From the IMG/VR virus record IMGVR_UViG_3300045988_173968: DNA of 64,000 nt; one strand, written 5' to 3'. Origin of the DNA: a virus. The notes below the pieces were generated by a model that made no database searches, had not been told where the DNA came from, and saw nothing but the letters and a program-made list of their open reading frames with translations. Each line of letters begins with the position of its first letter. The stretch's first letter is position 1. Both the position numbers and the translations under genes were made by a program. Positions 30,890 through 46,071 of this stretch are shown here, in pieces.

Positions 30890-31525
30890 TTACATCACAC
30901 GAAAATCTTCATATTTGATTTTCACAATGATGCGCTTGCCTGTGCGGTCTCGAAGCTCAACAGCCGGACGCCCAACAACGCCTTCCATAAATGCTGTGCC
31001 CATCGTGGACTTTGGATGTCCCTCAACAAAAGCAATTGCTTCGTCGATAGTACCCTCCAATACGATTGGAACTACATCAATACCAAGCATAGTTGCCGTC
31101 TGTTCTACCCACTGGCGTTCCTGATAGTTCTCTCCGACCAAAACATCAAAAAGGATAAAAGACACATCCTCCCGATAATTTCCGCCTTTTTGGATCTTCG
31201 GGCCATATCCCTCGCCAAACAGAATGACCTGTTTCTCGCCGTATGTCTGTTCAAACAGTTGCTCGACCTCCGGAGTCGAAAATGTATTGTTAAGGTACTC
31301 TAAGAGGAACTGCGGGATCGTAGCCTTGTCTGTTCTGCCAGCGAAGCTAATGTAGTGCCCATCCCAAATGACGCGAATATTGGTGCCGTCGAACTTCTCT
31401 GTGAACTGCCACTTGCTGTCCTTGAGATACTCCACGGCTTCGTTCCGCCAGTTGCCACGAATCAGCTTCTTTGTTCCGGTAGTGTCTCTGTTAAACACTG
31501 TTTCAATTTTGTTATACTCAACCAT
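30890..31525 (-). CDS. ATP-dependent RNA ligase-like nucleotidyltransferase
   Basis: Motif I TEKFDGTN (KxDGxN), FGEGYG, FILFDV, EGVVGRP, and motif V IIVKIK. Confidence 0.65.
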   Translation of the reverse strand: MVEYNKIETVFNRDTTGTKKLIRGNWRNEAVEYLKDSKWQFTEKFDGTNIRVIWDGHYISFAGRTDKATIPQFLLEYLNNTFSTPEVEQLFEQTYGEKQVILFGEGYGPKIQKGGNYREDVSFILFDVLVGENYQERQWVEQTATMLGIDVVPIVLEGTIDEAIAFVEGHPKSTMGTAFMEGVVGRPAVELRDRTGKRIIVKIKYEDFRVM

Positions 31526-31832
31526 TCTTATCCCCTCCTAAAACCTTCAATAAATCATCTTCAAAATTCTCAATTTCTACTGTTCTGAGGTCTTCAACAT
31601 CAATTAGATCGTCCTCAGTGAAGTCGTAGTATTCTAACTCCAAAGGGTCATCCATGTAAACAACTTCCCCAGAAACAATGGCATATGCATAACTGTCATA
31701 GATCCAACTCCAATTTCTTATACCCTCTTCTTTTAAGGCATCAATCAATTCAAGCCGCAAATCCAGACCCGATTTATTATGTTCGTTAAATCCGCGGATC
31801 GGATGCTTCTCCATTATTCTTACATCAAGCAT
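31518..31832 (-). CDS. GG-tail family small protein (tail ..FEDDLLKVLGG-DKNG)
   Basis: Shares an N-terminal fold with the next two ORFs (MLxVxLMxxxPxRG) and carries the C-terminal tail motif. Confidence 0.6.
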   Translation of the reverse strand: MLDVRIMEKHPIRGFNEHNKSGLDLRLELIDALKEEGIRNWSWIYDSYAYAIVSGEVVYMDDPLELEYYDFTEDDLIDVEDLRTVEIENFEDDLLKVLGGDKNG

Positions 31833-31834
31833 GC

Positions 31835-32113
31835 TTAACCTCCTAATAGAGTCATCAGCTCACTCTCAAATTGACAATCTTCATAATTTTCTACAAAGAG
31901 ATCCTCGAAAGTGATGTAGTCGAGATGATAACGACAAGCATCCACTACAATAAGGTTTTTCGGATTTATAAAATACATGAATTGAGAATTAAAATTCCAG
32001 TAAGTTGGGTTTATTACGCCTGCCTCTTTCAAAGCCTTTTGAAGCTCTTTAGCGTCATCTCTTTTTAATGGCCCACGAAGTGGTTTAACCCGCATCAAGT
32101 CAACATTTAGCAT
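31835..32113 (-). CDS. GG-tail family small protein (ends ..FESELMTLLGG)
   Basis: TAA stop directly after GG. Paralog of its neighbours. Confidence 0.6.
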   Translation of the reverse strand: MLNVDLMRVKPLRGPLKRDDAKELQKALKEAGVINPTYWNFNSQFMYFINPKNLIVVDACRYHLDYITFEDLFVENYEDCQFESELMTLLGG

Positions 32114-32115
32114 GT

Positions 32116-32391
32116 TTACACCCCCAATAGATTAAATAGTTCCTTTGAGAAATCCGGTATAGCGGGCTCAAAAAGATCGAGATACGAAATAAAATCACTC
32201 CGGTTTAATTCTGAACCACATCTAATATCAAGTCGATTGCCATTTATTTTGTATACAGATTTGTAGCTATCCATATGCCATCCGTCGAAATTGATTCCCG
32301 CATCTTTCATTGCTTCAAGTATTGCTTCTCTGTATATGCCTTGTGGACAGGTAATCCAGTTATTCCGCATCAAGTCAAGGTTTGCTTCCAT
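32116..32391 (-). CDS. GG-tail family small protein, degenerate tail (..FSKELFNLLGV)
   Basis: Paralog of 31835-32113. A truncated further copy (VLDIYLLRSHYFRGPL..) lies at about 32392-32466. Confidence 0.55.
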   Translation of the reverse strand: MEANLDLMRNNWITCPQGIYREAILEAMKDAGINFDGWHMDSYKSVYKINGNRLDIRCGSELNRSDFISYLDLFEPAIPDFSKELFNLLGV

Positions 32392-32479
32392 TTAAATCAA
32401 CTCCCATTGTTGTTCTTCCGTTAATGGCCCACGAAAATAATGGCTCCTAAGCAAATAAATGTCCAACACAATTAACTCC

Positions 32480-32766
32480 TCCTATTTATTGCAACCTGAG
32501 ATATCTGTTCCAAGTTTGGATCGCCTCTTCGTCGTCTTAAGTTGGGCTTCTGGCCCAATTAAGTCGGATTTGACTTAAGTTTGACTAGCCGAGGTGTGAA
32601 CTCCTGTACTGTTTATCGGACTTTGACCTAGTATATGACCTCGGGCAGCAAGCTGCCGGCTTCTCGCCTTCGCTAATCAGACTCCCTGGCGTCCTTCTTG
32701 CCCTCACAATGCGTTACAGCCGGTTATACCGAGCTGCTTTAGCAGTCGCTAAAAATATCGTTGCAA
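32480..32766 (-). ncRNA. Noncoding module X (about 287 nt) bounded by an 8-bp inverted repeat (ATTGCAAC...GTTGCAAT); retron-msr/msd-like
   Basis: No ORF. Its ends are shared with 36179-36479 (AAAAATATCGTTGCAA and TTGCAACCTGAGAT on the plus strand). Its interior motif GGTATAACCG..ACGCAT..CAAGA.G.ACGCC is shared with 35909-36175. A G follows the 5' repeat. Confidence 0.45.
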
Positions 32767-32775
32767 TTTTTTTAA

Positions 32776-32976
32776 TTATTTATTTTCTGAGAAAAGCTCG
32801 TCCACCGTGGAATCAAGAGCAGAAGCAATTTTCTGATAGTTCTCCAATCTGGAGCGAGTAAAGTTCTTTTCGATTTTGGAAACGGTAGCGGTACAGAGCC
32901 CAACCTTGTCGGCAAGGTCTTTCATGCCGTAGCCTTTCTCCATGCGCTTCTTCATCATTTCATAATTGTGTTTCAT
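32776..32976 (-). CDS. XRE-type helix-turn-helix regulator
   Basis: GYGMKDLADKVGLCTATVSKIEKN..LENYQKIASAL. Start at MKHNYE, which has an AAGGAGG RBS. Confidence 0.75.
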   Translation of the reverse strand: MKHNYEMMKKRMEKGYGMKDLADKVGLCTATVSKIEKNFTRSRLENYQKIASALDSTVDELFSENK

Positions 32977-33088
32977 AGTTAATACCTCCTTAAATGTTGA
33001 CAAGTTAGCAAAAATATACTACTATGGTCGTAGCACATTCTTTCTGTTTCATGGTGTGCCGCCGCCCTTCATGGGCGGCTCCTTTCTT

Positions 33089-33562
33089 TTATTCGTCCTC
33101 TTCGGTGTAATCTACCCAATAGATAGGGAGATTGATCCAATCTTCCTCACCGTCTGCCTTAGCATAAAAGAAGCCGCCCTCGCCAGATTCTCTAACTGTG
33201 GCAACTTCTTCCTCGGTAGCTTCGCGCCAATTTCCTTCGCCAAACTCGGCATTAAGTTCATTCTCGAGACACTCTTCAGAACAATATGTAACGCAATCGT
33301 CTTCGTTGTAGTATCCCTCGTTAATTTTTTCTCCACAGCAAGCGCAGGTCGTCTTAAAAACTGGGATTGCCAGGAATGCGTCAATTTTCTTTATGGCTTT
33401 GTTCAAATCAACTCCAGTGCTCTTGATTTGAATTGTCTTACCATCTTCCGCAAGGTATGCTTCCATACCCTCGCCTATCTCATCGGCGGAATAAATAGTT
33501 TCTTTATCTTCCATACCATTGAGTTTAAGATCAATGATCAGTCTGAGTTTTCTTGAAAACAT
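33089..33562 (-). CDS. Hypothetical protein with a Zn-ribbon
   Basis: Track ORF with CACCGE..YCSEEC. A GC hairpin lies after the stop. Confidence 0.5.
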   Translation of the reverse strand: MFSRKLRLIIDLKLNGMEDKETIYSADEIGEGMEAYLAEDGKTIQIKSTGVDLNKAIKKIDAFLAIPVFKTTCACCGEKINEGYYNEDDCVTYCSEECLENELNAEFGEGNWREATEEEVATVRESGEGGFFYAKADGEEDWINLPIYWVDYTEEDE

Positions 33563-33574
33563 TTCACATCCTCC

Positions 33575-33892
33575 TTAATTATCTAAAAGTGTTTGAAGCT
33601 CGTTTGAAAAATCATAGCCACCTGACGGATTTGACATTTCGATCAATTCCTCGATAGTGATAACTGGGTATGGCGAAAAAGTAATAAAAGTGCAAAACAT
33701 CTCAAGAAAGCCTCCGACTGCTTCTTTTATAAAATAACAATCGCCATCCCAACACATATAACATTGCAAAGATTTTTCGCCATCGTAAGCATCTACGGCA
33801 TGCTGCATTGTTGCCGCCCATTTGCCTATATCCCCGTGGAAGAACACCGCATATTCCTTGAGCAGATCCAGGTTAATATAGGGGTAATCCAT
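33575..33892 (-). CDS. GG-tail family relative, degenerate tail (..DFSNELQTLLDN)
   Basis: Paralog of 33905-34210 (both contain IEELIEMS / FVEMSSP followed by the tail). Confidence 0.5.
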   Translation of the reverse strand: MDYPYINLDLLKEYAVFFHGDIGKWAATMQHAVDAYDGEKSLQCYMCWDGDCYFIKEAVGGFLEMFCTFITFSPYPVITIEELIEMSNPSGGYDFSNELQTLLDN

Positions 33893-33904
33893 ACCATTCC
33901 CTCC

Positions 33905-34210
33905 TTATATTCCAAGCAACGCTGCAAGCTGTTCGGAGAAATCTTCCTGCGGAGAAGACATCTCAACGAATTCGTCCCATGTTATTACTGGTCTGTCTTC
34001 TTCAAAATTACACAAGTTTCTGCATAACATCGTATTATGCACGATATAATACACCGCTTTATCACAATTCCATTTCATGCCGCAACTCAAGAGACCCGTA
34101 TAACAACGAACAGAGTATTTCATCGTATCGACCATGGTTCTACTCCAATGGTCAATCTTCAGAGCATATGTCCTCAACAAATCCAAATCAACATAAAGAT
34201 ATTCCGGCAT
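33905..34210 (-). CDS. GG-tail family relative, degenerate tail (..DFSEQLAALLGI)
   Basis: Paralog of 33575-33892. Confidence 0.5.
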   Translation of the reverse strand: MPEYLYVDLDLLRTYALKIDHWSRTMVDTMKYSVRCYTGLLSCGMKWNCDKAVYYIVHNTMLCRNLCNFEEDRPVITWDEFVEMSSPQEDFSEQLAALLGI

Positions 34211-34212
34211 AC

Positions 34213-34455
34213 TTATACCCCCTGAATTCCAAGAATCACATATCCGTCTTTAACAAAATCCGGGTCGGACAACGCATAGCAGATACGCATTGTCACAGAC
34301 TTTCCGGTATATTCACCGTTATACTCTTTCAGAATCAGAATATCTCCCACACGGAAGTCTCTGTCGTACTTACGAACCTCAAAAGTCTTAACTCCGTTCA
34401 CTACATCTCTGTAGTACGGTGGCCAGATTTTTAATTCATGTATCTTCGGATTCAT
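34213..34455 (-). CDS. ASCH/PUA-like (DUF3850-like) domain protein
   Basis: MNPKIHELKIWPPYYRDVVNGVKTFEVRKYDRDFRVGDILILKEY matches the recalled ASCH/DUF3850 pattern. ATGA overlap with the upstream gene. Confidence 0.55.
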   Translation of the reverse strand: MNPKIHELKIWPPYYRDVVNGVKTFEVRKYDRDFRVGDILILKEYNGEYTGKSVTMRICYALSDPDFVKDGYVILGIQGV

Positions 34456-34721
34456 ACGGCTGCACCTCCTAACAGTGTCATAAGCTCTTCTTCGAAAGTG
34501 AAAGGCTCCTCTACTTGAACTTTTTCGAGGAATGCAGGAACAGCCCATTCGATTCTTTCCCTACCAGAGTTTTCATGAATACAGATGCGATACTCGCGGT
34601 CGCTGAAACCAATAACCTCAATAAACTCAACACAACTACTGCGCCGATATTTATCAAGTCTCCAGGGCAATCTTTGATGGTTTACGATTTGCACAACATC
34701 TCCAACTTGAAACTTTCTCAT
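34452..34721 (-). CDS. GG-tail family small protein (..FEEELMTLLGG-AAV), SH3/KOW-like N-terminus
   Basis: N-terminus is MRKFQVGDVVQIV. C-terminal tail motif with a 3-residue extension. Confidence 0.6.
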   Translation of the reverse strand: MRKFQVGDVVQIVNHQRLPWRLDKYRRSSCVEFIEVIGFSDREYRICIHENSGRERIEWAVPAFLEKVQVEEPFTFEEELMTLLGGAAV

Positions 34722-34733: not shown

Positions 34734-35882
34734 TTACGCAGCAACATCGTCTGCCATCATCTTGATGACATCGCAATGATACTTTTTGTTGTACCAAGAG
34801 ATCACATAATCAAAATACTCAGGTTCCACATTGCTATAATAAGAAAGCTTGCCACGCAGAGTCATTACTTCTTCCGGCGGCCAGCCCTTACCATCTTTTC
34901 TTGCAACTATGTAGTTATTCAGCATTGCCTTGAACACCTTTTTATTCTCGTGTCCAACAGTGATTTTGTTGTCTTTGTTGATCATCAAACCAAGACACCA
35001 GTTTCGACCTGCTCTGCTGCCGTAATGTGTTTTTTCTTTCTTAATGGTGTATGGCGCATCGAACTTCTTAAATACATCGTTCATCATCTCGATGACGCCC
35101 ATGAACAAGAAACCTTTCTTGGAAGAAACCGTAGCATCATCGGCGTAACGAGTGTAGACAAAATCGTTAGTCTCGCTGGCTCTCAATCGTCGAGAGATTT
35201 CATGGTCGATGGGAATCATAATGACATTAGTAAGAAGCGGAGAAATCGGAGTTCCCTGCGGCAGTCCACCATCGAGGAAACAGAGAGAGATAGCATCTCG
35301 TAGCGCTTTCTCGCCATCCTCATATTTAACAACCTCGCAGAAAGGATAAATCACGGATAACATCCGCATTGTGAATTCCAGCGTAGTCGAACCAAAGAAA
35401 TTGCTCAAGTCCGTCTTGAGGTACCAATTACTGTTGTTTCTTTGATGTACTTTCAGCGCATCAGTAGTGCTTCTGCCCTTGATGTACGCAAAAGCAGCCG
35501 TATGATATAGAACCTTAAAATCATTCTCGAAGATTGCCTTGAGACTATACAGAGCTTGTTTCAGTTCGTCATCCGGCGCATCGATCTGACGCCAACCGCC
35601 GGATTTCTTTGGAATTTTGAAAGAATTATAATGTTCTCGCATGTTGTTCGCATCAAATTTCGGCTGGTAAGTACGATTAAAACTCTTCAGCTTCCCGATA
35701 AGATACGGTGCTCGCGCCATTTCTTTTAGCTCCTGGGGGAGCTTTTTGTATTCGTAGGTTCTTGTGGATGTCCCGAAGTCCACTCCGTTAATATACGGGC
35801 TGAGATTTTTCACACCAAAGAGAACATCCTCAAGGGTAAGTTGCTTCTTTGCTCTTGTCATAAATGTGGTTACATATGGCAT
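34734..35882 (-). CDS. Reverse transcriptase (retron-like or defence-RT-like, 382 aa)
   Basis: FKIPKKSGGWRQIDAP, YLKTDLSNFFGS, LPQGTPISPLLTN, YTRYADDATVS (YADD) and LGLMINKDNK. No maturase or endonuclease domains. Confidence 0.85.
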   Translation of the reverse strand: MPYVTTFMTRAKKQLTLEDVLFGVKNLSPYINGVDFGTSTRTYEYKKLPQELKEMARAPYLIGKLKSFNRTYQPKFDANNMREHYNSFKIPKKSGGWRQIDAPDDELKQALYSLKAIFENDFKVLYHTAAFAYIKGRSTTDALKVHQRNNSNWYLKTDLSNFFGSTTLEFTMRMLSVIYPFCEVVKYEDGEKALRDAISLCFLDGGLPQGTPISPLLTNVIMIPIDHEISRRLRASETNDFVYTRYADDATVSSKKGFLFMGVIEMMNDVFKKFDAPYTIKKEKTHYGSRAGRNWCLGLMINKDNKITVGHENKKVFKAMLNNYIVARKDGKGWPPEEVMTLRGKLSYYSNVEPEYFDYVISWYNKKYHCDVIKMMADDVAA

Positions 35883-35908
35883 ATAAAAACTCCTTTCTTT
35901 TGTGTCGA

Positions 35909-36175
35909 TAAAACAGTCTAAAACACTTTCCTGATGACGCTGGAGGCGCCTGAAGACTCGCTGTTCTGCTAGTTACGGCTTCTAGTGACGGCGTTCTAGA
36001 TGAAATAAGGCCATCTTGAGTGCAGCTTTCTAATGGTTTGAACCATTATTTGCCAGAAAAGATGATTCGAGCTCGCCAGTCGCTCCTGGATCAGCTCCGG
36101 CGTGCCTCTTGTCTGTGACTATGCGTACCATTCGGTTATACCAAAATGCGCTCAATGAGCTATAACACTGTTTTA
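35909..36175 (-). ncRNA. RT-proximal noncoding module Y2 bounded by a 9-bp inverted repeat (TAAAACAGT...ACTGTTTTA); best msr-msd or DRT-ncRNA candidate
   Basis: The 5' repeat is followed by G. The 3' repeat ends about 25 nt before the RT ATG. The interior is homologous to module X over about 55 nt. Confidence 0.5.
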
Positions 36176-36178
36176 CTT

Positions 36179-36479
36179 TTGCAACCTGAGATGTGTGCGA
36201 TGATCAGCTACTGAGCTCTGGAGACCGGCTCCTCGAGTTTACTGCTGTATTATGTTTGTCTTTACCGTGCGTTGGTTTCTGGATAAGCGGTGGATGTTAG
36301 CAGTTTTGCTTTCGCAGTTAACCTATATCTGTCTTGGTTAACGATGATGTTCCACTTCACCTCGCCTACGCCAGGTACCTGCAGGCTTCCTTCGTGGTAT
36401 CCCGTTCCTTTTCGCTGGCAATTCAGTACATTCGCTTAAAACGAAATGCTTTGTTTTGAAAACAAAAATATCGTTGCAA
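36179..36479 (-). ncRNA. Noncoding module Y1 (about 301 nt) bounded by a 9-bp inverted repeat (TTTTGCAAC...GTTGCAAAA)
   Basis: No ORF. Shares both termini with module X. Internal hairpins are visible (TTGTTTT/AAAACAA, GTTAACC/GGTTAAC, GGAG/CTCC). Confidence 0.4.
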
Positions 36480-36488
36480 AAAAATCAT

Positions 36489-37172
36489 TTAATAGGTATC
36501 AATGGCAAAATTAAAAGCGTCCACCAGAATAATCTTCTTAAGGACACCTTTATTTACAAAGTTTACGAAGTTGGAAACCCCAAAAGAAACGATAGTCCAA
36601 ATCGTTCCCGCAACTGAAAGAGATACATTGCAGGCAGATACAGGAGTTGCCGCTCTTGCTTCCTCCTCGGTAAACTCCATAGAGCGAAGCAGATTGTCCT
36701 GCATCTTAGGATCAGACCAGTTGGCTGCGTAGTGTTGAGCATCAGTAAGCCGTGTCCGGAAATCAAAGACAGCTTTGATGTTCATGTTTGTTGCGTTTTC
36801 CTTGACGATTCTCCGCCGAAGCTCAATGCTATCTACGCAGAGGAAAACATAGCCGCTCAGACGCTGCTTGTCATATCCCTTATCGAAGATTTTCAGCTCT
36901 GAATCGATATCTGGATTGATTTTATGAAGCATTTCGGCAACCGCCGCAGTCTTGGGCTTGCCAATATCCTCAGTCGTAAACATCTGATTGGCAAGGTTAT
37001 GTGCCTCAACGACATCGAAGTCGTAAAGAGAAATGTTCGTCAGCCCCAATCGGGCCAAACAAACCGCCAAAGTAGAACCGACGCTGCCACAGCCGATAAT
37101 ATGGATGCGGGTCTTCGCACACTTGTCTGGATTAAAGAACTCGAAGCTCTTTGACAAATCCATCATCTGCAT
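36489..37172 (-). CDS. ThiF/E1-like adenylyltransferase (Rossmann domain only, 227 aa)
   Basis: IHIIGCGSVGS (GxGxxG) followed by LYDFDVVEAHNLANQ. Overlaps the JAB gene by 41 nt. Confidence 0.75.
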   Translation of the reverse strand: MQMMDLSKSFEFFNPDKCAKTRIHIIGCGSVGSTLAVCLARLGLTNISLYDFDVVEAHNLANQMFTTEDIGKPKTAAVAEMLHKINPDIDSELKIFDKGYDKQRLSGYVFLCVDSIELRRRIVKENATNMNIKAVFDFRTRLTDAQHYAANWSDPKMQDNLLRSMEFTEEEARAATPVSACNVSLSVAGTIWTIVSFGVSNFVNFVNKGVLKKIILVDAFNFAIDTY

Positions 37173-38058
37173 ATTCCTCCTCTAAGTCAATATCTTCGGT
37201 AATTCCACCGCCTATAACCTCAGCTTTTACCGAGTTTTTGGTTTTGGAATAATCCTCACTTTCGTTTTTTTTATCCTGTTTCTTACCGTAGTTGCCATAC
37301 GGATAATCATAGTCGTCCCAAAAATCTTCCCATCGACTACCGCATCCTCCGTAACCACCATATCCGTAGTCATATGTGCCACTCTTTTTAGAGCTATTGT
37401 AAGCACCTGTACCATGATAGGTATATGTCTTTGCCTTTACGAGTTTTTTGGACTCCTCCAGGAACTCACCGTTATCGAACTCAATAGAGACATCTATATC
37501 TCCATTCTCATAAAGCACATTGTTAGCGAGGTCGTAAATCTTAGCATTGTGCTCGTTCTTTTTATTCCAAATCACAAACACCCAAAATGTATCAGGTGAG
37601 CTATTCCCTACCCTGGTTGCCTGGTCAGTGAGATCAGTACCACTCGGGCTTGTCCCCATATTTACATGGCTGTGACCTTGGAAACGGATACGGTTGTAGT
37701 CCTCATCGGGGATTTTCTCGAGAAAAGCTCTGTGCTCATCCTCATCCGTGTCCACATTCACACCAGTAACGACTTGCGGGTACACAAAAACATCTGAGAT
37801 TTTGAAGCCGGCATCACCCACTCTGTCTACATATCCATACCATGCTACCTCAGAGTCAAAATTGTTGACCAAAGTAATCATCTTGGAATAGGCTTCGGGG
37901 GTGAAAATAATCTTCGCTTTACCCGTCTTCTCGCTTTTGAACTCCTTGGTGTATGTAAACTTGCCACCCTCGAAGCTCTTAGCGGATGAGATCTTCTCCG
38001 TGAATTCTCGAATCATTTCCGCAATTGTCTCTTTGGGAATGTTAATCATTTTAGCCAT
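37132..38058 (-). CDS. JAB/JAMM (MPN+) metallopeptidase with a G/Y-rich C-terminal region
   Basis: E (SEVAWYGY) followed by GHSHVNMGTSPSGTD, which is HxH-x7-S-xx-D. The C-terminus ..DGFVKELRVL resembles the family tail without GG. Confidence 0.75.
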   Translation of the reverse strand: MAKMINIPKETIAEMIREFTEKISSAKSFEGGKFTYTKEFKSEKTGKAKIIFTPEAYSKMITLVNNFDSEVAWYGYVDRVGDAGFKISDVFVYPQVVTGVNVDTDEDEHRAFLEKIPDEDYNRIRFQGHSHVNMGTSPSGTDLTDQATRVGNSSPDTFWVFVIWNKKNEHNAKIYDLANNVLYENGDIDVSIEFDNGEFLEESKKLVKAKTYTYHGTGAYNSSKKSGTYDYGYGGYGGCGSRWEDFWDDYDYPYGNYGKKQDKKNESEDYSKTKNSVKAEVIGGGITEDIDLEEEYADDGFVKELRVL

Positions 38059-39403
38059 TCTTCAACACCTCCATAGCTTCTTTCACGGTATGCACCGAAC
38101 CATCCTCGAACTCAATGAAACGCTCATTAGAAGAGCAGATCTTTTCAATGAAATTGGCGCCAACCGTCGAGTCATCAAAGTTGATATTGTGAGTAGAACC
38201 AATAGCCTGTTCAACTGCCCCAAGGTAATTTCTCTCACCCATCATACGATCAATGATTCGAGCATTACCACCCATGCAATGGAAACCGCAGAGATGAGGG
38301 TGAGGCAGATAAGTCTTGAGCTCTGCCAGATTTGTCTCTCTTTTATCTGGTCTCAAGGTACCAGCAACATCCAAGACAAAATGTGCCCAGGTGCGAATCT
38401 TGAATTTCGGATTCTCCCCAAAGACGCTATCCAAGAACAGCTTCATATCATTTTTGGACTTGATGTTCTTCCGCTCGCCATAGTTGCCATAAAAATAGCT
38501 GTATTCGTTATTGAGGCAACGCTCGAAGCTATCCTCATCAAAAGAGTCCAAATAACCCTTGACATAAAAGGAGATAAGCTCTTCGTCCGCATCTTCCAGG
38601 ATGAGATCCTTGCACCGGAGAAAGAACTTGAGAAATTCCCCTTCGTTGCCATCATTACGGCGAATTTTTTCTTCAAGAGCCGCAATTTGCAGGGTGTTAA
38701 AATGGTCTTTGTCGTAAAGGTCATCGAGCTGCCGAAGAAGATTCTCTATGTTGCTCTTAATTCTCGTGTATTCACTTTTCATTCGCTCCAACGAACTCTT
38801 CTCGAATTTCACATCAATGTCACTGAGAGCAGAGCGGATGAACATCTCACGCAGGTCAAGACGGTCATACAGTTTCTGAGATGAATCAGCAAACATATTT
38901 TCATCATTGCGAGAAATCGATTTCACGAGATCAAGCTCGTCGTTGTCGAGAGGCTTGCCCGCAAAGGTCGCAGGGAAGAGCTTCTGCACAATGCAAGCCA
39001 ACATACGACCAAATGACGAATCGAGCTTTTCGCTGTAGATGATGGAACGATTATTGTTTTCATCAATAAATGCCCAACCGACATCTTTTTGTTTGGAAAC
39101 GAAAAGACTTACCGGCTCATTCTGCTTGTAGCCAGCCGCAATAATGTCGGATTTATTCTCGCCAAGCCAAGACAAAGCGTTTTCACCGGAAATCAAATAG
39201 ACCGTGTTCCGCTCAGTTGGAATTGCATAATTGCTTTTTGCAATTTGGAGGTTGTATGTATTTTCCTTATCTCTGGGGTAGACCAGTGCTCTCAAGACAT
39301 GAGAATAACACTCCTCTCCGCCGATTGGTGTTACTGGGATATTGGTGCAAATCGTAGAAAACTTGTTGTCCGTAAATGTTGTGTTGCGAATACTTCGAAT
39401 CAT
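38051..39403 (-). CDS. Hypothetical 450-aa protein, first gene of the JAB/E1 operon
   Basis: Overlaps the JAB start by 8 nt. Has a central coiled-coil-like region and the C-terminal motif HPHLCGFHCMGGN. No family recognised. Confidence 0.6.
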   Translation of the reverse strand: MIRSIRNTTFTDNKFSTICTNIPVTPIGGEECYSHVLRALVYPRDKENTYNLQIAKSNYAIPTERNTVYLISGENALSWLGENKSDIIAAGYKQNEPVSLFVSKQKDVGWAFIDENNNRSIIYSEKLDSSFGRMLACIVQKLFPATFAGKPLDNDELDLVKSISRNDENMFADSSQKLYDRLDLREMFIRSALSDIDVKFEKSSLERMKSEYTRIKSNIENLLRQLDDLYDKDHFNTLQIAALEEKIRRNDGNEGEFLKFFLRCKDLILEDADEELISFYVKGYLDSFDEDSFERCLNNEYSYFYGNYGERKNIKSKNDMKLFLDSVFGENPKFKIRTWAHFVLDVAGTLRPDKRETNLAELKTYLPHPHLCGFHCMGGNARIIDRMMGERNYLGAVEQAIGSTHNINFDDSTVGANFIEKICSSNERFIEFEDGSVHTVKEAMEVLKNG

Positions 39404-39436
39404 TTTACATTTCTCCTTTATATTTTATTTTATGAA

Positions 39437-39512
39437 TGGAGCTGGCGGACGGACTTGAACCCCCGACCTGATGCTTACAAAACATCTGCTCTACCAACTG
39501 AGCTACGCCAGC
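39437..39512 (-). tRNA. tRNA-Thr (anticodon UGU)
   Basis: GCTGGCG acceptor, GCTC-AGTTGGTA-GAGC D arm, anticodon loop TT-TGT-AA, GGTTCAAGTCC T arm, and CCA encoded. Confidence 0.85.
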
Positions 39513-39531
39513 AATGGTAACTAATTTGTGA

Positions 39532-40053
39532 TTAGGTTCCTTTGCGTGAAAGACGGCACGCAACAAATAAACCAATTGACATCACTATGGTATCCATCAC
39601 CGCTGCGACCATATTTTTCGGAATCTTTACTGCAAGGGGGATAGAAAAGAGCAAGCATTCGACAGCTGTTTTAACAACGCCGACGCCAAGTAAAACTGCC
39701 ACACCGGTTATTGCAATGTTTGACCCACACAAACTATCATTTTTCTGGTAGGCTTTCCCACAAATGATCCCAATCAGAACATTGCCAAGCATCCAACCAA
39801 GTGGAAACCAACCCGAAGAAAGCAAGCTTACGACAGTACACCCCGCACCGCCTACAATCGCGCCGCCAAGCATCCCGAACCTCATACAGCAAACCGCAAG
39901 CACTATATACCCAAGGTCAAGCGAAATATGGCCAATGCCAATCGGTATTTTGAGCACCATACTTACGACAACATACAGTGCAATACAAAGTGCAATTTGG
40001 CATATCCACATAGTGTTTTTTCTTATAGAATTTTCTTTAGTTGGTTTATTCAT
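39532..40053 (-). CDS. Polytopic membrane protein, ECF-transporter S-component-like
   Basis: 173 aa with about 5-6 hydrophobic helices. Size and topology resemble vitamin or queuosine-precursor S components. Weak call. Confidence 0.4.
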   Translation of the reverse strand: MNKPTKENSIRKNTMWICQIALCIALYVVVSMVLKIPIGIGHISLDLGYIVLAVCCMRFGMLGGAIVGGAGCTVVSLLSSGWFPLGWMLGNVLIGIICGKAYQKNDSLCGSNIAITGVAVLLGVGVVKTAVECLLFSIPLAVKIPKNMVAAVMDTIVMSIGLFVACRLSRKGT

Positions 40054-40399
40054 CAGTCGATTCTCCTTTCAACTTTTTACTGTCTACATATACCTCTATT
40101 GCCCTGTGATGCGCAAACTGCTCAAGAAGTTCGTCAAAAGATACACCATTCACTTTTGCGTCCACTTTCATTGCAGAAAATTGATCTTTATATTTCTTAA
40201 CCATGCTCTCTAAAGCGAGAAAATGTTCTTTGTCTTTCGGATAAAAAGCGATATCCTCAATGCAAACTTTGCTGATATCTTTTTCGTGGTAAATCGCTCT
40301 CAAACAATTTTTACATGGTTCATCCTCCGGCGATAATGAGAAGTTAATGCAATCACCGCAATAGACGGTAACTCCATTCACCTTAATTGGCTTTACCAT
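40046..40399 (-). CDS. Hypothetical protein
   Basis: Track ORF with a CGDC..CKNC Zn-ribbon. Confidence 0.5.
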   Translation of the reverse strand: MVKPIKVNGVTVYCGDCINFSLSPEDEPCKNCLRAIYHEKDISKVCIEDIAFYPKDKEHFLALESMVKKYKDQFSAMKVDAKVNGVSFDELLEQFAHHRAIEVYVDSKKLKGESTDE

Positions 40400-40423
40400 T
40401 AAAAATACCCCCTAAATTTTTAT

Positions 40424-40498
40424 TGGAGCTGAAGCCCAGACTTGAACTGGGAACCTGCGCTTTACGAGTGCGCCACTCTACCTTTGAGTTACTTCAGC
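40424..40498 (-). tRNA. tRNA-Thr (anticodon CGU)
   Basis: GCTGAAG acceptor, ACTC-AAAGGTA-GAGT D arm, loop CT-CGT-AA (A-A mismatch at the last stem pair), GGTTCAAGTC T arm, and CCA encoded. Confidence 0.75.
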
Positions 40499-40532
40499 AT
40501 ATTGCCCCTCCGAAGAGGGGCATGAGGTATTA

Positions 40533-40760
40533 TCAGGCGTTGGAGGTCTTCGCAATGCAGGACAGGCGGCAGGACTCAGTAATGCCGTAGGAGGCAAAGG
40601 ACTTGTCCATCTCACCGGCACGCAACGGAGTACCATCCAGCGCGGGGGTGGCGGTAGAATAATCTACATTGTTCTCATCGAGAACCTCTCGAATGGTCTT
40701 CTCAGCGTCTACGAGCAGAGTCTTACGATCCATGTTGTTAGTCAGAGTAATGCTTACCAT
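40533..40760 (-). CDS. Hypothetical 75-aa protein (possible beta-grasp-like fold; speculative)
   Basis: Track ORF with higher GC than its neighbours. A GC hairpin (40504-40521) follows the stop. Confidence 0.5.
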   Translation of the reverse strand: MVSITLTNNMDRKTLLVDAEKTIREVLDENNVDYSTATPALDGTPLRAGEMDKSFASYGITESCRLSCIAKTSNA

Positions 40761-40859
40761 AATTTTTTCTCCTTTGTTATGTAAATTTAATTTTTAGGGA
40801 CATAGTTGCGCCCCGCAGCGGTTAGCCACGGGGCTTGATTGTACTGTGCTGTTTACGGC

Positions 40860-41255
40860 TTACTGGACATCGATGGCAGCCTGAACGGAAGCAACCTCAG
40901 CCTCGATCTCGGTGAGAGTAGTACCAAGAGTCTCCTCCAGAGCATTCATCTTCAGGATGATGGCACCGAACTTGTCCTCAGCGTAGGTTTTAGCCTCGGC
41001 GGCAGACATACCGGTGGGGATCATCTCGGTGTAGGTCGCGTAGCCATTCTCGTCGTGAGAAGCGCTTACGAACACAACGCCATTCTTATTGGCGCTGGCA
41101 GTCTTAGTGCCAACATCAATGCTGAAAACGGGGTTCTTTTCTTTGTCGCGCAGAACCAGAGCATCGGGACGATACTTCTTAGTCTTACGCAGGGTCTCCA
41201 GCTTCAGGCCGGAAGTGAGTACGAGTGCGTCTCCATGGATAGTGATCTTAGTCAT
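40860..41255 (-). CDS. Hypothetical protein
   Basis: Start at MTKITIHG with an AAAGGAG RBS. Higher GC. No family recognised. Confidence 0.5.
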   Translation of the reverse strand: MTKITIHGDALVLTSGLKLETLRKTKKYRPDALVLRDKEKNPVFSIDVGTKTASANKNGVVFVSASHDENGYATYTEMIPTGMSAAEAKTYAEDKFGAIILKMNALEETLGTTLTEIEAEVASVQAAIDVQ

Positions 41256-41317
41256 AGTTTGACTCCTTTCGCCCATTTTGGGCATTAAAATTATTTATGT
41301 ATAACCCTGTCTGGGTT

Positions 41318-41605
41318 TTACAACGAAAGTATGTTCGAGAGCTGGTCAAAAAAATCTTCGTATGCAATTTCAGGCTCTATGCAGTCAACATAAAAACGGC
41401 GGTTGATTTCCTTCGCTCCAGGGATATCACAACTCCATAAGCCTTCAAGATTGTGATTATCGAACATGATCGAAACACAATTCGACTTACATACTTCAAC
41501 AACCTCACCAGCCTCTCCAATGAAATGACTTTCATCTAATCCGCTGTGTGGGTTTTTCTTAACAACAACCACTCTGTCGCCTACTTTGAATTTTGCCATT
41601 ATCAT
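41318..41605 (-). CDS. GG-tail family relative, degenerate tail (..EDFFDQLSNILSL), SH3/KOW-like N-terminus
   Basis: N-terminus is MAKFKVGDRVVVV. The tail helix is retained but GG is lost. Confidence 0.5.
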   Translation of the reverse strand: MIMAKFKVGDRVVVVKKNPHSGLDESHFIGEAGEVVEVCKSNCVSIMFDNHNLEGLWSCDIPGAKEINRRFYVDCIEPEIAYEDFFDQLSNILSL

Positions 41606-41829
41606 TCACCTCCAAATAATTTTAGTAATTCTTTCTCGAATGTTGGTTGTTCTTCCTCTGGCAAAAGGATAAGTTCATCCTTTGCAATTTCGTCTGCGGT
41701 CGGCATATAACAGTCTGCAGAATATGCAAATGTCCCTTCACACCTATTCTTACACGCCAAGTAATCGCAATTGTCAGGGTTGGCTGTTTCATTCTGACGG
41801 AATAGACAAAATTCATAAAAACAGTCCAT
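41602..41829 (-). CDS. GG-tail family small protein (..FEKELLKLFGG-E), Cys-rich N-terminus
   Basis: Tail motif with a 1-residue extension. Confidence 0.55.
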   Translation of the reverse strand: MDCFYEFCLFRQNETANPDNCDYLACKNRCEGTFAYSADCYMPTADEIAKDELILLPEEEQPTFEKELLKLFGGE

Positions 41830-41960: not shown

Positions 41961-42307
41961 CATTCTACCTCCTGCATCCAAAATTTACGACGGCAATCAG
42001 AGCATATCCGGTTTGAACAATTTCCGTATCTATCCCGACAATCAGCAGAAATGAGTTTTGGGCATAGCATCAAGCGCCCACATTTGTCAATTTCCGCCTC
42101 TGGATACTGTTCAAGAAACACGCTCTGCCTCGTCTTGCGTGGATGTGCAGCAGACCATTCCTCGACTATAGCAATCTGATCCGTAGCGTCCAGCGTTGAT
42201 ATGGTGGAAACCCCACAACCACCATTAGAAGCTGGGCACCCAGTACATTTATCACCAAAACTCTCGCACATCCTGTTGCGTTCCTCAATAAATTTTACAA
42301 CATCCAT
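41960..42307 (-). CDS. Hypothetical Cys-rich protein
   Basis: Track ORF. Start moved to MDVVKF, which has a GGAGG RBS. Confidence 0.5.
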   Translation of the reverse strand: MDVVKFIEERNRMCESFGDKCTGCPASNGGCGVSTISTLDATDQIAIVEEWSAAHPRKTRQSVFLEQYPEAEIDKCGRLMLCPKLISADCRDRYGNCSNRICSDCRRKFWMQEVE

Positions 42308-42445
42308 TGAATTTTCCTCCATTTGCACCCGTCGCACGCGCCATTATGTGCGTGTTTGTACTTCCCGCAGTATTGTCATAACTCGTTGATAAGCGCCTTG
42401 CGGTCTGACGCCAGCTACATTGAACTTTATCTCCCATAGAAAATT

Positions 42446-42751
42446 TCATTCGGTACTCCCTCCCAATAATTTAAGAAGTTCGTCCTCAAAGGATTCTATT
42501 GGAGCAACTAACCGGATCTCATTTTCAAGAACCCAGCGGCAATTAGGATTATAAGCGTCAAGCTCCCAAGTGGACTCATAGGCATCCTCGAATGAGATGC
42601 AAAATTTTGCATTCAATATTCCATTAACATTTTCCGGTTCATTGAAATTAACATCAATAACAGTTCCAACAGCGCCAATTAAATCGTCACACGCATAATC
42701 GTCGTATGCAATATTCTCAACAATTTCTACATTATCGCCTACTGAAAACAT
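42446..42751 (-). CDS. GG-tail family small protein (..FEDELLKLLGG-STE), SH3-like N-terminus
   Basis: N-terminus is MFSVGDNVEIV. Tail motif with a 3-residue extension. Confidence 0.6.
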   Translation of the reverse strand: MFSVGDNVEIVENIAYDDYACDDLIGAVGTVIDVNFNEPENVNGILNAKFCISFEDAYESTWELDAYNPNCRWVLENEIRLVAPIESFEDELLKLLGGSTE

Positions 42752-43560: not shown

Positions 43561-43629
43561 TGGTTTCGGGTGGACTTGAACCACCGACGCACTGGCTCCC
43601 AGCTGCTCTACCTCCTGAGCTACGAAACC
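43561..43629 (-). pseudogene. tRNA-like gene with a truncated anticodon arm (13 nt instead of 17)
   Basis: Normal acceptor (GGTTTCG), D arm (GCTC-AGGAGGTA-GAGC) and T arm (GGTGG-TTCAAGT-CCACC). The anticodon region is GCTGG-GAG-CCAGT, a 3-nt loop. No CCA encoded. Confidence 0.5.
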
Positions 43630-43820: not shown

Positions 43821-43846
43821 ATTTAAGCAGGCAAGCCTTGGCACCT

Positions 43847-44359
43847 CTAAACGAGGTGCCGCCTGTTGGTTCGATATGTATTGATTTCTTCTTGAAGCTC
43901 GTCCATGATGTCGGTAAGGATCTCCACATAGTTTTCATCTTGGCAGTAGCGATAAGCCACATCTTCAAGTTTCGAACCTGTGTACTTCCAGGAATCTGGA
44001 TTGTTGTATTCCAACAGCCCTTCCGCAATGAACCAGATACATTCTTCAACGGAGTCGAACGACCGGAAACTGCCATCATATTGACGCCAACCTCCGATGT
44101 TATTTTTCTCCTTGAAGTAGGTTGATGTTCCCCATCCGCTCTCCAATCCGAATTTTGCAAGTAAGTACAGCGGGTTTATTCCGTAATACTTCCCTGTTTC
44201 GAGGATTGTCCAAGCATATGGGGACAGCCCTTCTCGAAGATTTGTCAGTACATACTCGAATTCTTCCAATGTGTAGTCCGTTTCATCGGTAAAGACTTCG
44301 TACCCATACGCCGGAACTACTATCAGAAGCGCTAAGAGGATTGCAATGATTTTACGCAT
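43847..44359 (-). CDS. Secreted glucosaminidase (GH73/LytD-FlgJ-like) domain protein
   Basis: N-terminal signal peptide MRKIIAILLALLIVVPAYG. INPLYLLAKFGLESGWGTS..NNIGGW. Ends at TAG (43849-43847), and a TAA follows 8 codons later. Confidence 0.65.
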   Translation of the reverse strand: MRKIIAILLALLIVVPAYGYEVFTDETDYTLEEFEYVLTNLREGLSPYAWTILETGKYYGINPLYLLAKFGLESGWGTSTYFKEKNNIGGWRQYDGSFRSFDSVEECIWFIAEGLLEYNNPDSWKYTGSKLEDVAYRYCQDENYVEILTDIMDELQEEINTYRTNRRHLV

Positions 44360-44391
44360 TTAATACCTCCTGAATTTTTGCCCTTGCGGGC

Positions 44392-44468
44392 TGGTCGGGA
44401 TGACAGGATTTGAACCTGCGACCTCGTACTCCCAAGGCACGCGCTCTACCAAGCTGAGCCACATCCCG
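44392..44468 (-). tRNA. tRNA-Pro (anticodon UGG)
   Basis: CGGGATG acceptor, GCTC-AGCTTGGTA-GAGC D arm, CGTGC-CTTGGGA-GTACG anticodon arm, GCAGG-TTCAAAT-CCTGT T arm, and CCA encoded. Confidence 0.9.
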
Positions 44469-44639
44469 ATAAAGAAAGAGCCTGCGGTTTTTCTACGCCA
44501 CAGGCTCTTCCACAGAAAGGGGGCGATGCACATCCCTGCATCTGGGGCTCTTTTTCCGGCTTGCATTTCGCAAGTCGCCTCTCGCACGAGCAGTGCTAAG
44601 GTTATCTCGAAAGGAGGTGCGGGGGAATGACGACCCCCG

Positions 44640-44726
44640 TGGTGCCGCTGGCGGGATTTGAACCCGCACGATGTTTCCATCGAGGGATTTTAAGTCCCTT
44701 TCGTCTGCCAATTCCGTCACAGCGGC
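44640..44726 (-). tRNA. tRNA-Leu (anticodon UAA), long variable arm
   Basis: GCCGCTG acceptor, AGGGA-CTTAAAA-TCCCT anticodon arm, variable arm GATGGAAACATC, GCGGG-TTCAAAT-CCCGC T arm, and CCA encoded. Confidence 0.85.
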
Positions 44727-44729
44727 ATT

Positions 44730-45194
44730 TTAATCATCTCTTCTTGCGCACTTCCCATCAACAAAGTGATAATCTCCAGCATATGCACAATCAGCACAAT
44801 CGTTTGTCTCGTCACCGCCGAGAGGGCAAAGAAGATTCATAAGCTCATCCTCGAAATAGAATTTTTGTTTTAACTCCGGTCGATATTTCATAATGAAATC
44901 ATCAACAGGGATTACATACCATCCATCGTAAAGTTCAGTTTTCTGATAATATTCCAAGTAACAAAACGAACCCCACTTAAGGCTTCCATTTTGCATCACA
45001 AGGATAGCAACTGTATCACTGCTCATTCGACCGAATTGCTTCCCTATTGCCTCAATGTCACTCTTTGGGAAAACTCTGACTTCATGATCTTCAGACCAGT
45101 CATCTGGGCTCAAAACTCCGTCGAAGATTTCTACAAATTCCTCAACCGTAGTCTCTCGATTAAAGTAGACGAGGAGCTTCTTTTCAATTTCCAT
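44730..45194 (-). CDS. GG-tail family protein with an interrupted tail and a Cys-rich extension (..FEDELMNLLCPLGG-DETNDCADC..)
   Basis: N-terminal domain is paralogous to 45196-45558. Carries a 29-residue extension after GG. Confidence 0.6.
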   Translation of the reverse strand: MEIEKKLLVYFNRETTVEEFVEIFDGVLSPDDWSEDHEVRVFPKSDIEAIGKQFGRMSSDTVAILVMQNGSLKWGSFCYLEYYQKTELYDGWYVIPVDDFIMKYRPELKQKFYFEDELMNLLCPLGGDETNDCADCAYAGDYHFVDGKCARRDD

Positions 45195-45195
45195 T

Positions 45196-45558
45196 TCATC
45201 CTCCTATCAGTGCCATTAGTTCATCCTCAAAGATTATTGGTTCCCGTAGGTCGGGGCGAAAAACATCAATGAATTCATCGATAGTATAGACAGGCGCTCT
45301 TTCATAGCCGTGCTCCTTATACCAAGACAGAGAGCAATAACCTTCCCATTTGATGGGATCATCATCTGAAACAATAAGAGATATAGTATCATCCTCTCTT
45401 CCAGAATCAAGAATATTTCGAGCCACTACGGAATGTATATCGACTGCGAAGAACTTTTTCGTGCCATTTCTATCATAAACTTCTGACATCGCATCGAAGA
45501 ATTCCGATTCTGTCATCTGTCTATCGAAGTGAACGAGAATTAACCCAGTTTTATCCAT
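45196..45558 (-). CDS. GG-tail family protein (ends ..FEDELMALIGG)
   Basis: TGA stop directly after GG. Paralog of its neighbours. Confidence 0.6.
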   Translation of the reverse strand: MDKTGLILVHFDRQMTESEFFDAMSEVYDRNGTKKFFAVDIHSVVARNILDSGREDDTISLIVSDDDPIKWEGYCSLSWYKEHGYERAPVYTIDEFIDVFRPDLREPIIFEDELMALIGG

Positions 45559-45559
45559 T

Positions 45560-45880
45560 TTACCCTCCTAATAGTTGCATCAGCTCGTCCTCGAATGGCT
45601 CAGACTCTTTAATGCCAAGAAGCTCAAGGAACTGATCAAGGTTGATTTCAGTGTAACCTGATATATAATGGCTTCCCTGTGGAGTATGATAAAATTCATA
45701 GTTGGCATATCCAAGACATTTGAAATTACCATTAAACCGAAGCCCTACGCCTCTTTTAAACTTTGCTACAACATAATCATTACTACTAAAGAGAGATCTG
45801 TCTATTTTTACACCAGCAAACATTATTTCGTCTATAAGGTTCTCGTCGAGAGCCTCGTGCAAGACCAAAAGATATTTCAT
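45560..45880 (-). CDS. GG-tail family protein (ends ..FEDELMQLLGG)
   Basis: TAA stop directly after GG. Start at MKYLLVL, which has a GGAGGGG RBS. Confidence 0.6.
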   Translation of the reverse strand: MKYLLVLHEALDENLIDEIMFAGVKIDRSLFSSNDYVVAKFKRGVGLRFNGNFKCLGYANYEFYHTPQGSHYISGYTEINLDQFLELLGIKESEPFEDELMQLLGG

Positions 45881-46071
45881 CCCAACCCCTCCATGATAAT
45901 CCGCCTGCAAATCTGATCGACTTCAATTTCGGAATTGCAAGCGTACAGTTTCTCTTTGTCTTTCTTTTTGAGTTTAATGCGGAAGTCCTTGATCATTTCG
46001 AGCTTTTTTTCTATGTACTTCTCCTTATCGGAAGTGATTTTTATGACCTTGAAATGCACCTTTAATTGCAC
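45877..46071 (-). CDS. Hypothetical K/E-rich small protein
   Basis: Track ORF. The start codon is uncertain. Confidence 0.4.
   Translation of the reverse strand: MQLKVHFKVIKITSDKEKYIEKKLEMIKDFRIKLKKKDKEKLYACNSEIEVDQICRRIIMEGLG

Follow-up and report, generated by a model that had tools for sequence, protein, structure and literature searches.

Twelve small proteins, encoded on the minus strand between positions 31518 and 45910 of a viral DNA, share a short C-terminal tail of the type FEDELMxLLGG that is attached to otherwise unrelated heads. The DNA, a stretch of 64,000 nucleotides (nt) from IMG/VR virus record IMGVR_UViG_3300045988_173968 that is called the window throughout, is probably part of a large phage genome with a host among the Clostridia. 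The tail is a shared terminal short linear motif, and no described family matches it or its carriers. We suggest, with a probability of roughly 45%, that it serves as a lineage-specific docking or address element for one common, co-evolving partner. In the mechanism that we favor, the tail would be a short linear peptide in which an acidic linker, often with proline, leads into an amphipathic helix of ~9 residues, with hydrophobic positions F(-9), L(-5), L(-2) and L(-1) as numbered from the last Leu. Found on small acidic proteins that diversify fast, such a peptide would bring a variety of heads to a single partner. The terminal Gly-Gly, with the 1–4 residues that follow it in some copies, lies outside the functional peptide: here the reading frame of the tail gene runs on through the Shine-Dalgarno sequence and spacer of the next gene.

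A common tail on unrelated heads

A preliminary description of this DNA had listed a dozen proteins with such C-termini, and all of their open reading frames (ORFs) were recovered. There are exactly 12 between positions 31518 and 45910, of 75–154 amino acids (aa), which end in F-(E/S/F)-x-(E/D/Q)-L-x-x-(L/I/V)-(L/I/F). The role of chance was assessed with the pattern F-x-x-[EDQ]-L-x-x-[LIVM]-[LIFVM], applied to ORFs of at least 60 aa in all six frames of the window and to 2000 within-ORF shuffles. The pattern occurred 12 times, each time in a tail gene, and it lay within the last 17 residues in 11 of these 12 genes, against a shuffled mean of 0.14 and a maximum of 3. Looser matches elsewhere numbered three, all on tiny plus-strand ORFs.

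All-against-all BLASTP of the 12 protein bodies yielded five head classes, in keeping with the at least four unrelated N-terminal types first proposed, and across classes only the tail aligned. All genes given here lie on the minus strand. Class A comprises proteins of 104 aa (31518..31832), 92 aa (31835..32113) and 91 aa (32116..32391), ending in NFEDDLLKVLGG-DKNG, QFESELMTLLGG and DFSKELFNLLGV, respectively, and class B proteins of 105 aa (33575..33892) and 101 aa (33905..34210), ending in DFSNELQTLLDN and DFSEQLAALLGI. The SH3-like heads of class C, whose Pfam SH3 matches are weak, belong to proteins of 89 aa (34452..34721, ending in TFEEELMTLLGG-AAV), 95 aa (41318..41605, ending in DFFDQLSNILSL; SH3_12, E = 0.0037) and 101 aa (42446..42751, ending in SFEDELLKLLGG-STE). 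Class D contains proteins of 154 aa (44730..45194), 120 aa (45196..45558, ending in IFEDELMALIGG) and 116 aa (45560..45910, ending in PFEDELMQLLGG); in the first of these, the tail FEDELMNLL-CPLGG is followed by a Cys-rich extension of 28 aa. The Cys-rich head of class E was found in a single protein of 75 aa (41602..41829, ending in TFEKELLKLFGG-E).

All 12 tail proteins are acidic, with a pI of ~4.0–5.4, and an acidic linker that usually contains proline connects head and tail. The helical hydrophobic moment exceeded the beta-strand moment in 12 of 12 tails. At the DNA level the tail copies are 65–78% identical, with synonymous codons varying between them; the tail is thus conserved as protein and not as a DNA repeat, and its core is selected at the protein level. 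For the same reasons, and because the reverse transcriptase (RT) of the locus is retron-type and not of the diversity-generating retroelement type, an origin of the tail from a DNA-level repeat or from a template of such an element was discarded. No significant match was found in Pfam, in PHROGs or among PDB sequences for the tail proteins scanned, not every copy having been passed through every library, which agrees with the initial view that no described family has this tail; the NCBIfam scan took in the neighbors of the tail genes and not the tail proteins.

The tail has been retained through a natural exchange of heads. At the site of the class E gene 41602..41829, strain L026 has a gene whose head is SH3-like (MKFSVGDKVQ...) and whose last ~28 codons (DELILLPKEEQPSFEEELLKLLGGE) are those of the class E gene. 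The DNA of L026 and of the window is near-identical from ~85 nt before the stop codon onward and unrelated further upstream. A 5′ remnant of the SH3-headed gene (MKFSMGDKVQ..., 54 codons) lies in the window at 42285..42449 (minus strand) and corresponds to the intact L026 gene, MKFSVGDKVQ...FEEELLKLLGGE. In the window strain this gene has been broken up by other genes, and its original 3′ tail is now part of 41602..41829. The Cys-rich head is joined in frame to the tail, with sequence variation, in several other contigs. Since the ~28 terminal codons are shared by unrelated heads, we conclude that heads were exchanged while linker and tail were kept.

Coding of the terminal Gly-Gly

The preliminary description had compared the tail to a ubiquitin-like di-glycine end, adenylated by an E1-like enzyme and trimmed by a JAB peptidase, and had taken the residues beyond Gly-Gly in some copies as precursor-like extensions. 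Neither idea was supported when the codons were inspected. In seven copies (31518, 31835, 34452, 41602, 42446, 45196 and 45560) the terminal Gly-Gly is coded GGA GG(G/T/A), and the Gly-Val of 32116 is coded GGG GTG. These codons constitute the Shine-Dalgarno sequence of the next gene, 4–9 nt before its ATG, and GGAGG ribosome-binding sites are what the genes of the window use. Thus, GGAGGGG at the end of 31518 serves the RNA-ligase gene, whose ATG overlaps the DKNG codons; GGAGGT-TAAGC-ATG at the end of 31835 leads into gene 31518; GGGGGTG in 32116 precedes the next gene; and the GGAGGA of 45196 and the GGAGGG of 45560 serve genes 44730 and 45196, respectively. In 34452 (GGAGGT) and 42446 (GGAGGG), 8 nt separate this sequence from an ATG that overlaps the stop codon.

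The residues after Gly-Gly (DKNG, AAV, E and STE) are accordingly the spacer between Shine-Dalgarno sequence and ATG, their lengths equal that spacing, and the start codon overlaps or abuts the stop. Two class B copies without Gly-Gly have GGAGG directly past the stop codon instead: 33575, ending LLDN, is followed by GGAGGA and 33905, ending LLGI, by GGAGGG. The class C gene 41318 has no Shine-Dalgarno sequence at its end. The same geometry was found in other lineages, where a terminal ILGR is coded CTT GGG AGG TGA, ILGVAV holds GGGGGTG and FGGE holds GGGGGT.

Natural variants tell the two kinds of selection apart. In strain L004 the homolog of 32116 ends LLEV, the change from GGGGGTG to GGAGGTG giving a better Shine-Dalgarno sequence, and in L003 and L005 the homolog of 45196 ends LIGE, coded GGAGAA. 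Since these variants lose a glycine and keep or improve the Shine-Dalgarno sequence, selection holds the purine-rich site and not the glycines. In related phages that carry this E1/JAB module, the tails have no glycine and close with SLL, LLS, ILKM or the like. We conclude that the Gly-Gly is a by-product of translational coupling and no part of the functional peptide. An E1 substrate would be expected to bear a conserved Gly or Gly-Gly selected at the protein level, which the tails lack, and a beta-grasp domain ahead of its reactive C-terminus. The heads of the tail proteins give weak SH3-like Pfam matches or none, and beta-grasp-like features occur in a separate 75-aa gene.

The tail also resembles the double-glycine leaders of bacteriocins and of the NHLP/Nif11 type (L-S-x-x-E-L-x-x-I-x-G-G, cleaved by C39 peptidases), with which FEDELMxLLGG has E(-8), L(-7), L(-4), G(-2) and G(-1) in common, and both form amphipathic helices. 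Unlike the tail, such leaders are N-terminal and precede a core peptide. Seven copies of the tail stop 0–4 residues past Gly-Gly and one more ends in Gly-Val, so that either nothing or a Shine-Dalgarno spacer follows, and the Gly-Gly is not kept in relatives. No Pfam leader model matched the tail proteins scanned, and no gene for a C39 peptidase or ABC exporter was found among the window proteins scanned, which were part of the ORFs. More generally, where the genes of Firmicutes phages are tightly packed, GGAGG ribosome-binding sites can leave a C-terminal Gly-Gly in the upstream protein, and the codons should be inspected before such an end is called ubiquitin-like.

Tail lineages and the neighboring module

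As originally noted, the tail genes lie on both sides of an operon for an E1-like enzyme and a JAB peptidase: a ThiF protein and a JAB protein with intact JAMM motif are encoded between them, and the link recurs across lineages. In transcription order, the module (34734–41285, minus strand) encodes a 141-aa protein, a 75-aa protein, a 450-aa protein, JAB, ThiF and, after a 606-nt spacer, a retron-type RT. A search for relatives with an alignment of two JAB sequences found 163 in IMG/VR, from which 80 loci were fetched; 36 more came from metagenome-assembled genomes, and one distant relative, MT835544.1, was the only one among GenBank phages. The whole module was checked in the ~116 loci fetched; in L007 and in L023–L138 the six genes stood in the same order wherever the contig was long enough, with minor exceptions such as L126. 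The genes for the 141-aa and ubiquitin-like proteins are duplicated in two loci (L129 and L133).

Small ORFs of these loci were clustered by the similarity of their last 12 residues. Tail groups appeared in ~65 of the 80 IMG/VR loci, with 3–13 genes per locus, directly upstream of the 141-aa gene and downstream of the RT gene. The form of the tail is uniform within a genome and different between lineages. The largest clade, which includes MT835544.1, has W-T-D-(D/E)-M-F-E...E-C-x-C-x-S-L-L, and other lineages have C-(K/R)-S-L-L (L067 and L082 group), V-x-F-x-S-L-L (L068), D-I-x-x-A-L-S-S-L-(L/I) (L087), (S/T)-E-E-D-F-L-x-I-L (L032, L107, L126 and L077, with further residues after it) or E-L-D-x-F-F-x-x-F-G-G (L079). 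Closest to the tail of the window is (S/T)-E-(D/N/E)-E-L-x-x-(L/F)-(L/F)-(S/G), found in L129 and L133. All forms fit an acidic stretch, a hydrophobic residue at -5 and two more at -2 and -1, the residue at -5 being Cys or Phe in the clades that end in SLL. Since sister clades have a single Cys, Phe or Val in place of the paired Cys of E-C-x-C-x-S-L-L, these Cys residues serve as hydrophobic positions and not as obligatory metal ligands. SH3-like tail proteins of the SLL clade (L007 at 1940–2443, 9511–12280 and 14654–15506, and most of L033–L102) also have W-(T/S)-D-(D/E)-M-F at the end of the head.

In every lineage where tails were found, their genes lie beside the module or within it. Five of them lie between the ThiF and RT genes in L079, a tail-bearing protein of 190 aa is encoded between JAB and ThiF in L129 and L133, and one of 250–288 aa between ThiF and RT in L029 and L032. 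The exact tail of the window was sought in three ways. A degenerate DNA pattern run against IMG/VR returned the same species and two chance matches only; a word-index search of 5.8 billion proteins with 42-aa tail segments, limited in reach as just 14 candidates were scored, returned same-species fragments only; and an exhaustive HMMER search of 1.84 billion representative proteins returned six same-species proteins and one low-complexity artefact. Across these searches, the exact form was found only in this phage species, which fits co-evolution with a lineage-specific partner.

The 75-aa protein (40533..40760, ending AKTSNA) is predicted to be ubiquitin-like. It has the beta-beta-alpha-beta-alpha-beta pattern of the beta-grasp fold, and its profile gave weak PDB matches to SAMP2, a MoaD-like protein and the UBL domain of ubiquilin. 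With a single-sequence AlphaFold2 model (pLDDT 64.5) as query, nearly all of the top 50 PDB entries returned by Foldseek were ubiquitin, ISG15, SUMO, FAT10 or ThiS, none of them significant (E ≥ 0.5, TM ~0.45). Its C-terminus, K-x-(D/S)-N-A, is invariant in relatives and is followed by nothing or by R, LAA, TSK, GQ, TGMN or VVM (0–4 residues). Such a conserved end with variable extensions looks like the precursor signature of a JAB-processed ubiquitin-like protein, as known from CysO/QbsE, BilA of the Bil system and BubAB of the Bub system (PMC11601596); this pattern, which the preliminary description had seen in the tails, thus belongs to the 75-aa protein. Judged from these features, the 75-aa protein appears to be a more plausible substrate of E1 and JAB than the tails, and since the module carries its own ubiquitin-like protein, the two enzymes need no other.

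In L029, L030 and L127 a single reading frame encodes the ubiquitin-like protein followed by the 141-aa protein. This parallels BubAB, a Ubl-E2 pre-protein that is cleaved by the JAB domain of BubCD (PMC11601596). The 141-aa protein itself (40860..41285), encoded by the first gene of the module, has an invariant Ser25; it matched nothing in Pfam, NCBIfam or PADLOC, and a PDB profile search was empty. The 450-aa protein (38051..39403) has a central coiled coil and an invariant His370/Cys376 pair (PNPHI....C), and is the fastest-evolving product of the module, with 21–30% identity where ThiF keeps 46–64%. Its AlphaFold2 model, built from six homologs, was unusable (pLDDT 41), and no match was found in PDB by profile search, in Pfam or in PADLOC. 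The scans of the module with Pfam, NCBIfam and PADLOC matched no E2 (UBC-like) model. By analogy, the 141-aa protein, fused behind the ubiquitin-like protein as in BubAB, and the 450-aa protein, with its invariant His/Cys pair, are candidates for an E2-like component.

The remaining proteins of the module are better recognized. The JAB/JAMM peptidase (308 aa, 37132..38058) aligns with an intact H-x-H-x7-S-x2-D motif (GHSHVNMGTSPSGTD) and gives weak Prok-JAB and PADLOC JAB matches. The ThiF/E1-like adenylyltransferase (227 aa, 36489..37172) matches PF00899 (E = 9e-24), NCBIfam ThiF, the Cap2 E1 region and PADLOC E1-E2 models. The RT (382 aa, 34734..35882), encoded by the last gene, matches the retron St85 RT model NF038233 with E = 2.8e-54, below the curated cut-off, and PADLOC RT_II-A with E = 1.1e-51. 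A ubiquitin-like protein, an E1 and a JAB are thus encoded together, the combination by which operons of the Bil, Bub and CBASS Cap2/Cap3 types are recognized. In the literature that we searched, there was no description of a ubiquitin-like/E1/JAB set with a retron-type RT, of a retron with ThiF and a ubiquitin-like protein, or of tails such as these.

The 606-nt spacer before the RT gene (35883..36488, minus strand) contains no plausible ORF and may encode a putative retron-type non-coding RNA. The folding energy did not support a structured RNA there (z-score only -1.13), and no Rfam family matched. Direct repeats of 18–32 nt are common to the spacer and to non-coding DNA at 32400–32770, between 32116–32391 and a helix-turn-helix gene (repeat families D2 and D15), and a further direct repeat is shared with the start of the RNA-ligase gene at 31494–31511 (family D18). 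The spacer and 32400–32770 may hold paralogous non-coding RNAs or regulatory sites. Between the ubiquitin-like and 450-aa genes, this phage species alone has an insertion of two tRNA-Thr genes, a 117-aa ORF and a gene at 39532–40053 (minus strand) for the S component of an energy-coupling factor transporter (PF07155, E = 1.3e-11); the transporter gene is missing in strain L025.

Candidate roles of the tail

Among the alternatives to adenylation and trimming that the preliminary description had named, docking to a common partner is the one that we favor. We infer in turn that the tail binds something, that the bound partner is shared and that it belongs to the module. Since tail genes flank or enter the module in every tail-bearing lineage, the components of the module (the 141-aa, ubiquitin-like and 450-aa proteins, JAB, ThiF and RT) would be the most plausible partners, and the fast evolution of the 450-aa protein is a weak hint in its direction.

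Several observations weigh against the docking reading. No clear tail set was found within 10 kb of the module in ~10 of the 80 IMG/VR loci and in many loci from metagenome-assembled genomes, and in divergent lineages the generic motif was only weakly enriched, ~2.4-fold over composition-shuffled C-termini (37 vs 15.4). When the similarity of the module proteins was compared with tail type, no discriminating signal appeared and no binding partner was singled out. The association with the module could reflect nothing more than synteny in a single phage family, in which an accessory 'hyperplastic' region lies beside a conserved block. Classes A, B and D have a second short helix-like segment, (I/V)-T-x-(D/E)-(D/E)-(F/L)-(I/V), ~10–15 residues before the tail; on this account they are perhaps distant paralogs, and part of the apparent portability of the tail could be common descent. 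Finally, 44730 is the only copy whose Gly-Gly (GGC GGT) is no Shine-Dalgarno sequence. In sequenced relatives, the homolog of 45196 is followed only by the short ORF MKIERNLLVHF, which we read as a probable truncated remnant of gene 44730, and the motif scan there returned no FEDELMNLL copy.

In its logic, the tail seems closest to the address sequence of T4 internal proteins and to the docking motifs of ubiquitin-ligase adaptors. The latter (F-box, SOCS/BC-box, the PRANC/F-box-like domain of poxvirus ankyrin proteins and the DDB1-binding H-box) likewise combine variable target-binding heads with one short docking element and work beside ubiquitin-type machinery; PRANC is, in addition, C-terminal, as is the tail. 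The likeness is one of organization only, and both the conjugation activity of the module and a contact between tail and module are putative. By this analogy, the tail may plug adaptors or substrates into a phage ubiquitin-like conjugation machine coupled to a retron-type RT, with the variable heads recognizing targets of the host or of rival phages, an F-box/PRANC logic arrived at independently in phages of gut Clostridia. We regard this extension of the docking reading as unlikely.

Unrelated proteins also carry C-terminal peptides that bind a clamp or hub, such as the PIP box (Q-x-x-L-x-x-F-F), the clamp-binding tails of T4 gp43, gp55 and gp33, the EDLSRFIL end of HslU and the tip of SSB. 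The tail recalls them in its acidic stretch followed by a hydrophobic residue, two variable residues and two hydrophobic residues near the C-terminus. It differs from PIP and beta-clamp motifs in that the defining Gln is absent: position 1 is E, D or S, and never a conserved Q, and the last pair is LL, IL or LF. No clamp gene is present in the window, and a dozen small clamp binders would be, to our knowledge, unprecedented.

Among the competing explanations, the one that survives best, although we consider it unlikely, holds that the tail has no shared function and is the best-kept remnant of an ancient paralogous family or the structural C-terminal helix of each fold. The segment common to classes A, B and D would be expected from paralogy, and the tail-bearing ORFs of most related lineages are, almost without exception, clear SH3-like paralogs. 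Against this, the Cys-rich, SH3-like and alpha/beta heads have no detectable similarity beyond the tail, from which proline-containing acidic linkers part them. The head-swap recombinant keeps the tail in frame, and its form persists in several contigs. Moreover, the tails of one genome vary far less than its heads do, yet they differ between lineages, which indicates concerted evolution and not decay.

An address for the capsid, by which the tail would bind the procapsid interior, scaffold or portal so that the small proteins are packaged and injected, seems to us a rather doubtful alternative. Its model would be the T4 internal proteins, the cargo-loading peptides of encapsulins and the C-terminal helix by which scaffolding proteins bind the coat. 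In phage T4, the capsid-targeting sequence is N-terminal, targets the scaffold core and is cleaved by the prohead protease. Like the tail proteins, the T4 internal proteins (IPI, IPII, IPIII and the hyperplastic IP locus) are unrelated small proteins from one variable locus that bear a terminal address peptide of ~10 residues and exchange heads between strains. A packaging role would also agree with the lineage-specific form of the tail, expected if it co-evolves with a structural protein, and with the small, acidic nature of the proteins, which many injected anti-defense proteins share. The tail differs from the T4 peptide in being C-terminal, where the known phage capsid-targeting sequences are N-terminal and cleaved, and its genes stand on the replication/early strand among those for tRNA, RNA ligase, NrdD and Pol III alpha, not among structural genes. 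Genes for a capsid, scaffold, prohead protease or encapsulin were not identified in the window; cargo peptides of the encapsulin type are C-terminal and occur on cargo encoded beside an HK97-fold shell gene.

A role as degron or timing tag is improbable; in this case a host or phage protease or adaptor of Clp or Lon type would read the hydrophobic C-terminal peptide, so that early proteins are removed together. The C-terminal position, the non-polar ends of most lineages (SLL, LL, IL) and the occurrence on many unrelated proteins would suit such a tag. Tails of the window lineage have GG, GG-DKNG, GG-STE or a 28-residue extension behind their hydrophobic end, so a free non-polar C-terminus is not required; and, unlike known C-terminal degrons, the conserved part reaches nine or more residues inward and includes acidic residues. 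Equally improbable is that the tails bind each other, amphipathic helices or the Cys strands of the SLL clade co-assembling into a bundle or a metal- or disulfide-bridged cluster that joins the heads in a hetero-oligomer with no receptor. Tails that are amphipathic, uniform within a genome and divergent between genomes would be expected in this case, and the C-x-C pair of the largest clade could pair across chains; nine residues are nevertheless short for a stable bundle, and sister clades (L068, L067) have Phe, Val or Leu instead of Cys. Least likely, and in our view very improbable, is a portable ubiquitin-like C-terminus whose Gly-Gly is adenylated or conjugated by the ThiF-like E1 and whose extended copies are trimmed by JAB: genuine ThiF and JAB genes do lie amid the tail genes, the E1 of CBASS, Cap2, reportedly acts on the C-terminal tail of a CD-NTase that is not ubiquitin-like, and 28 residues follow the Gly-Gly of 44730, but the Shine-Dalgarno coding of the Gly-Gly and its extensions, the glycine-free copies, strain variants and relatives, and the module's own ubiquitin-like protein with its (D/S)-N-A end and extensions or 141-aa fusion all argue against it.

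The relatives of this phage were mostly binned with genomes of Oscillospiraceae, Ruminococcus, Lachnospiraceae and related groups. Other genes of the window encode SHMT, a DnaB-like helicase, RNA ligase, NrdD, tyrosine integrases, 6–7 tRNAs and Pol III alpha; the last, of DnaE type (6213–9608, minus strand), has an apparent intein, with an Intein_splicing match between its finger and HHH domains. Three genes are tyrosine-recombinase-like (349–1539, 17516–18463 and 51397–52326), one being of Tn916 type with an Integrase_DNA domain, one having an MrpR-like core-binding domain and one matching Phage_integrase. A 292-aa ORF at 56410–57288 (plus strand) has a weak match to eukaryotic-type RNA-dependent RNA polymerase (PF05183, E = 7e-7) and may be a fragment of a YonO-like non-canonical RNA polymerase. 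Two adjacent Rfam matches on the minus strand scored above gathering, a DUF3800-XI RNA (16809–16856) and a skipping-rope RNA (16861–16945), and a seventh tRNA at 43561–43629 (minus strand), missed by ARAGORN, matched the Rfam tRNA model with 50.8 bits.

The module deserves attention in itself, as a phage-borne set in which the end of the ubiquitin-like protein is Asn-Ala and not Gly, the protein is sometimes fused as in Bub, and the linkage to a retron-type RT is invariable. If the tail is indeed a shared docking peptide, a class of otherwise unannotatable small phage proteins, 3–13 per genome in well over 100 related gut-phage genomes, would work through one hub, and the 9-residue peptide would be a simple handle for fishing out that hub.

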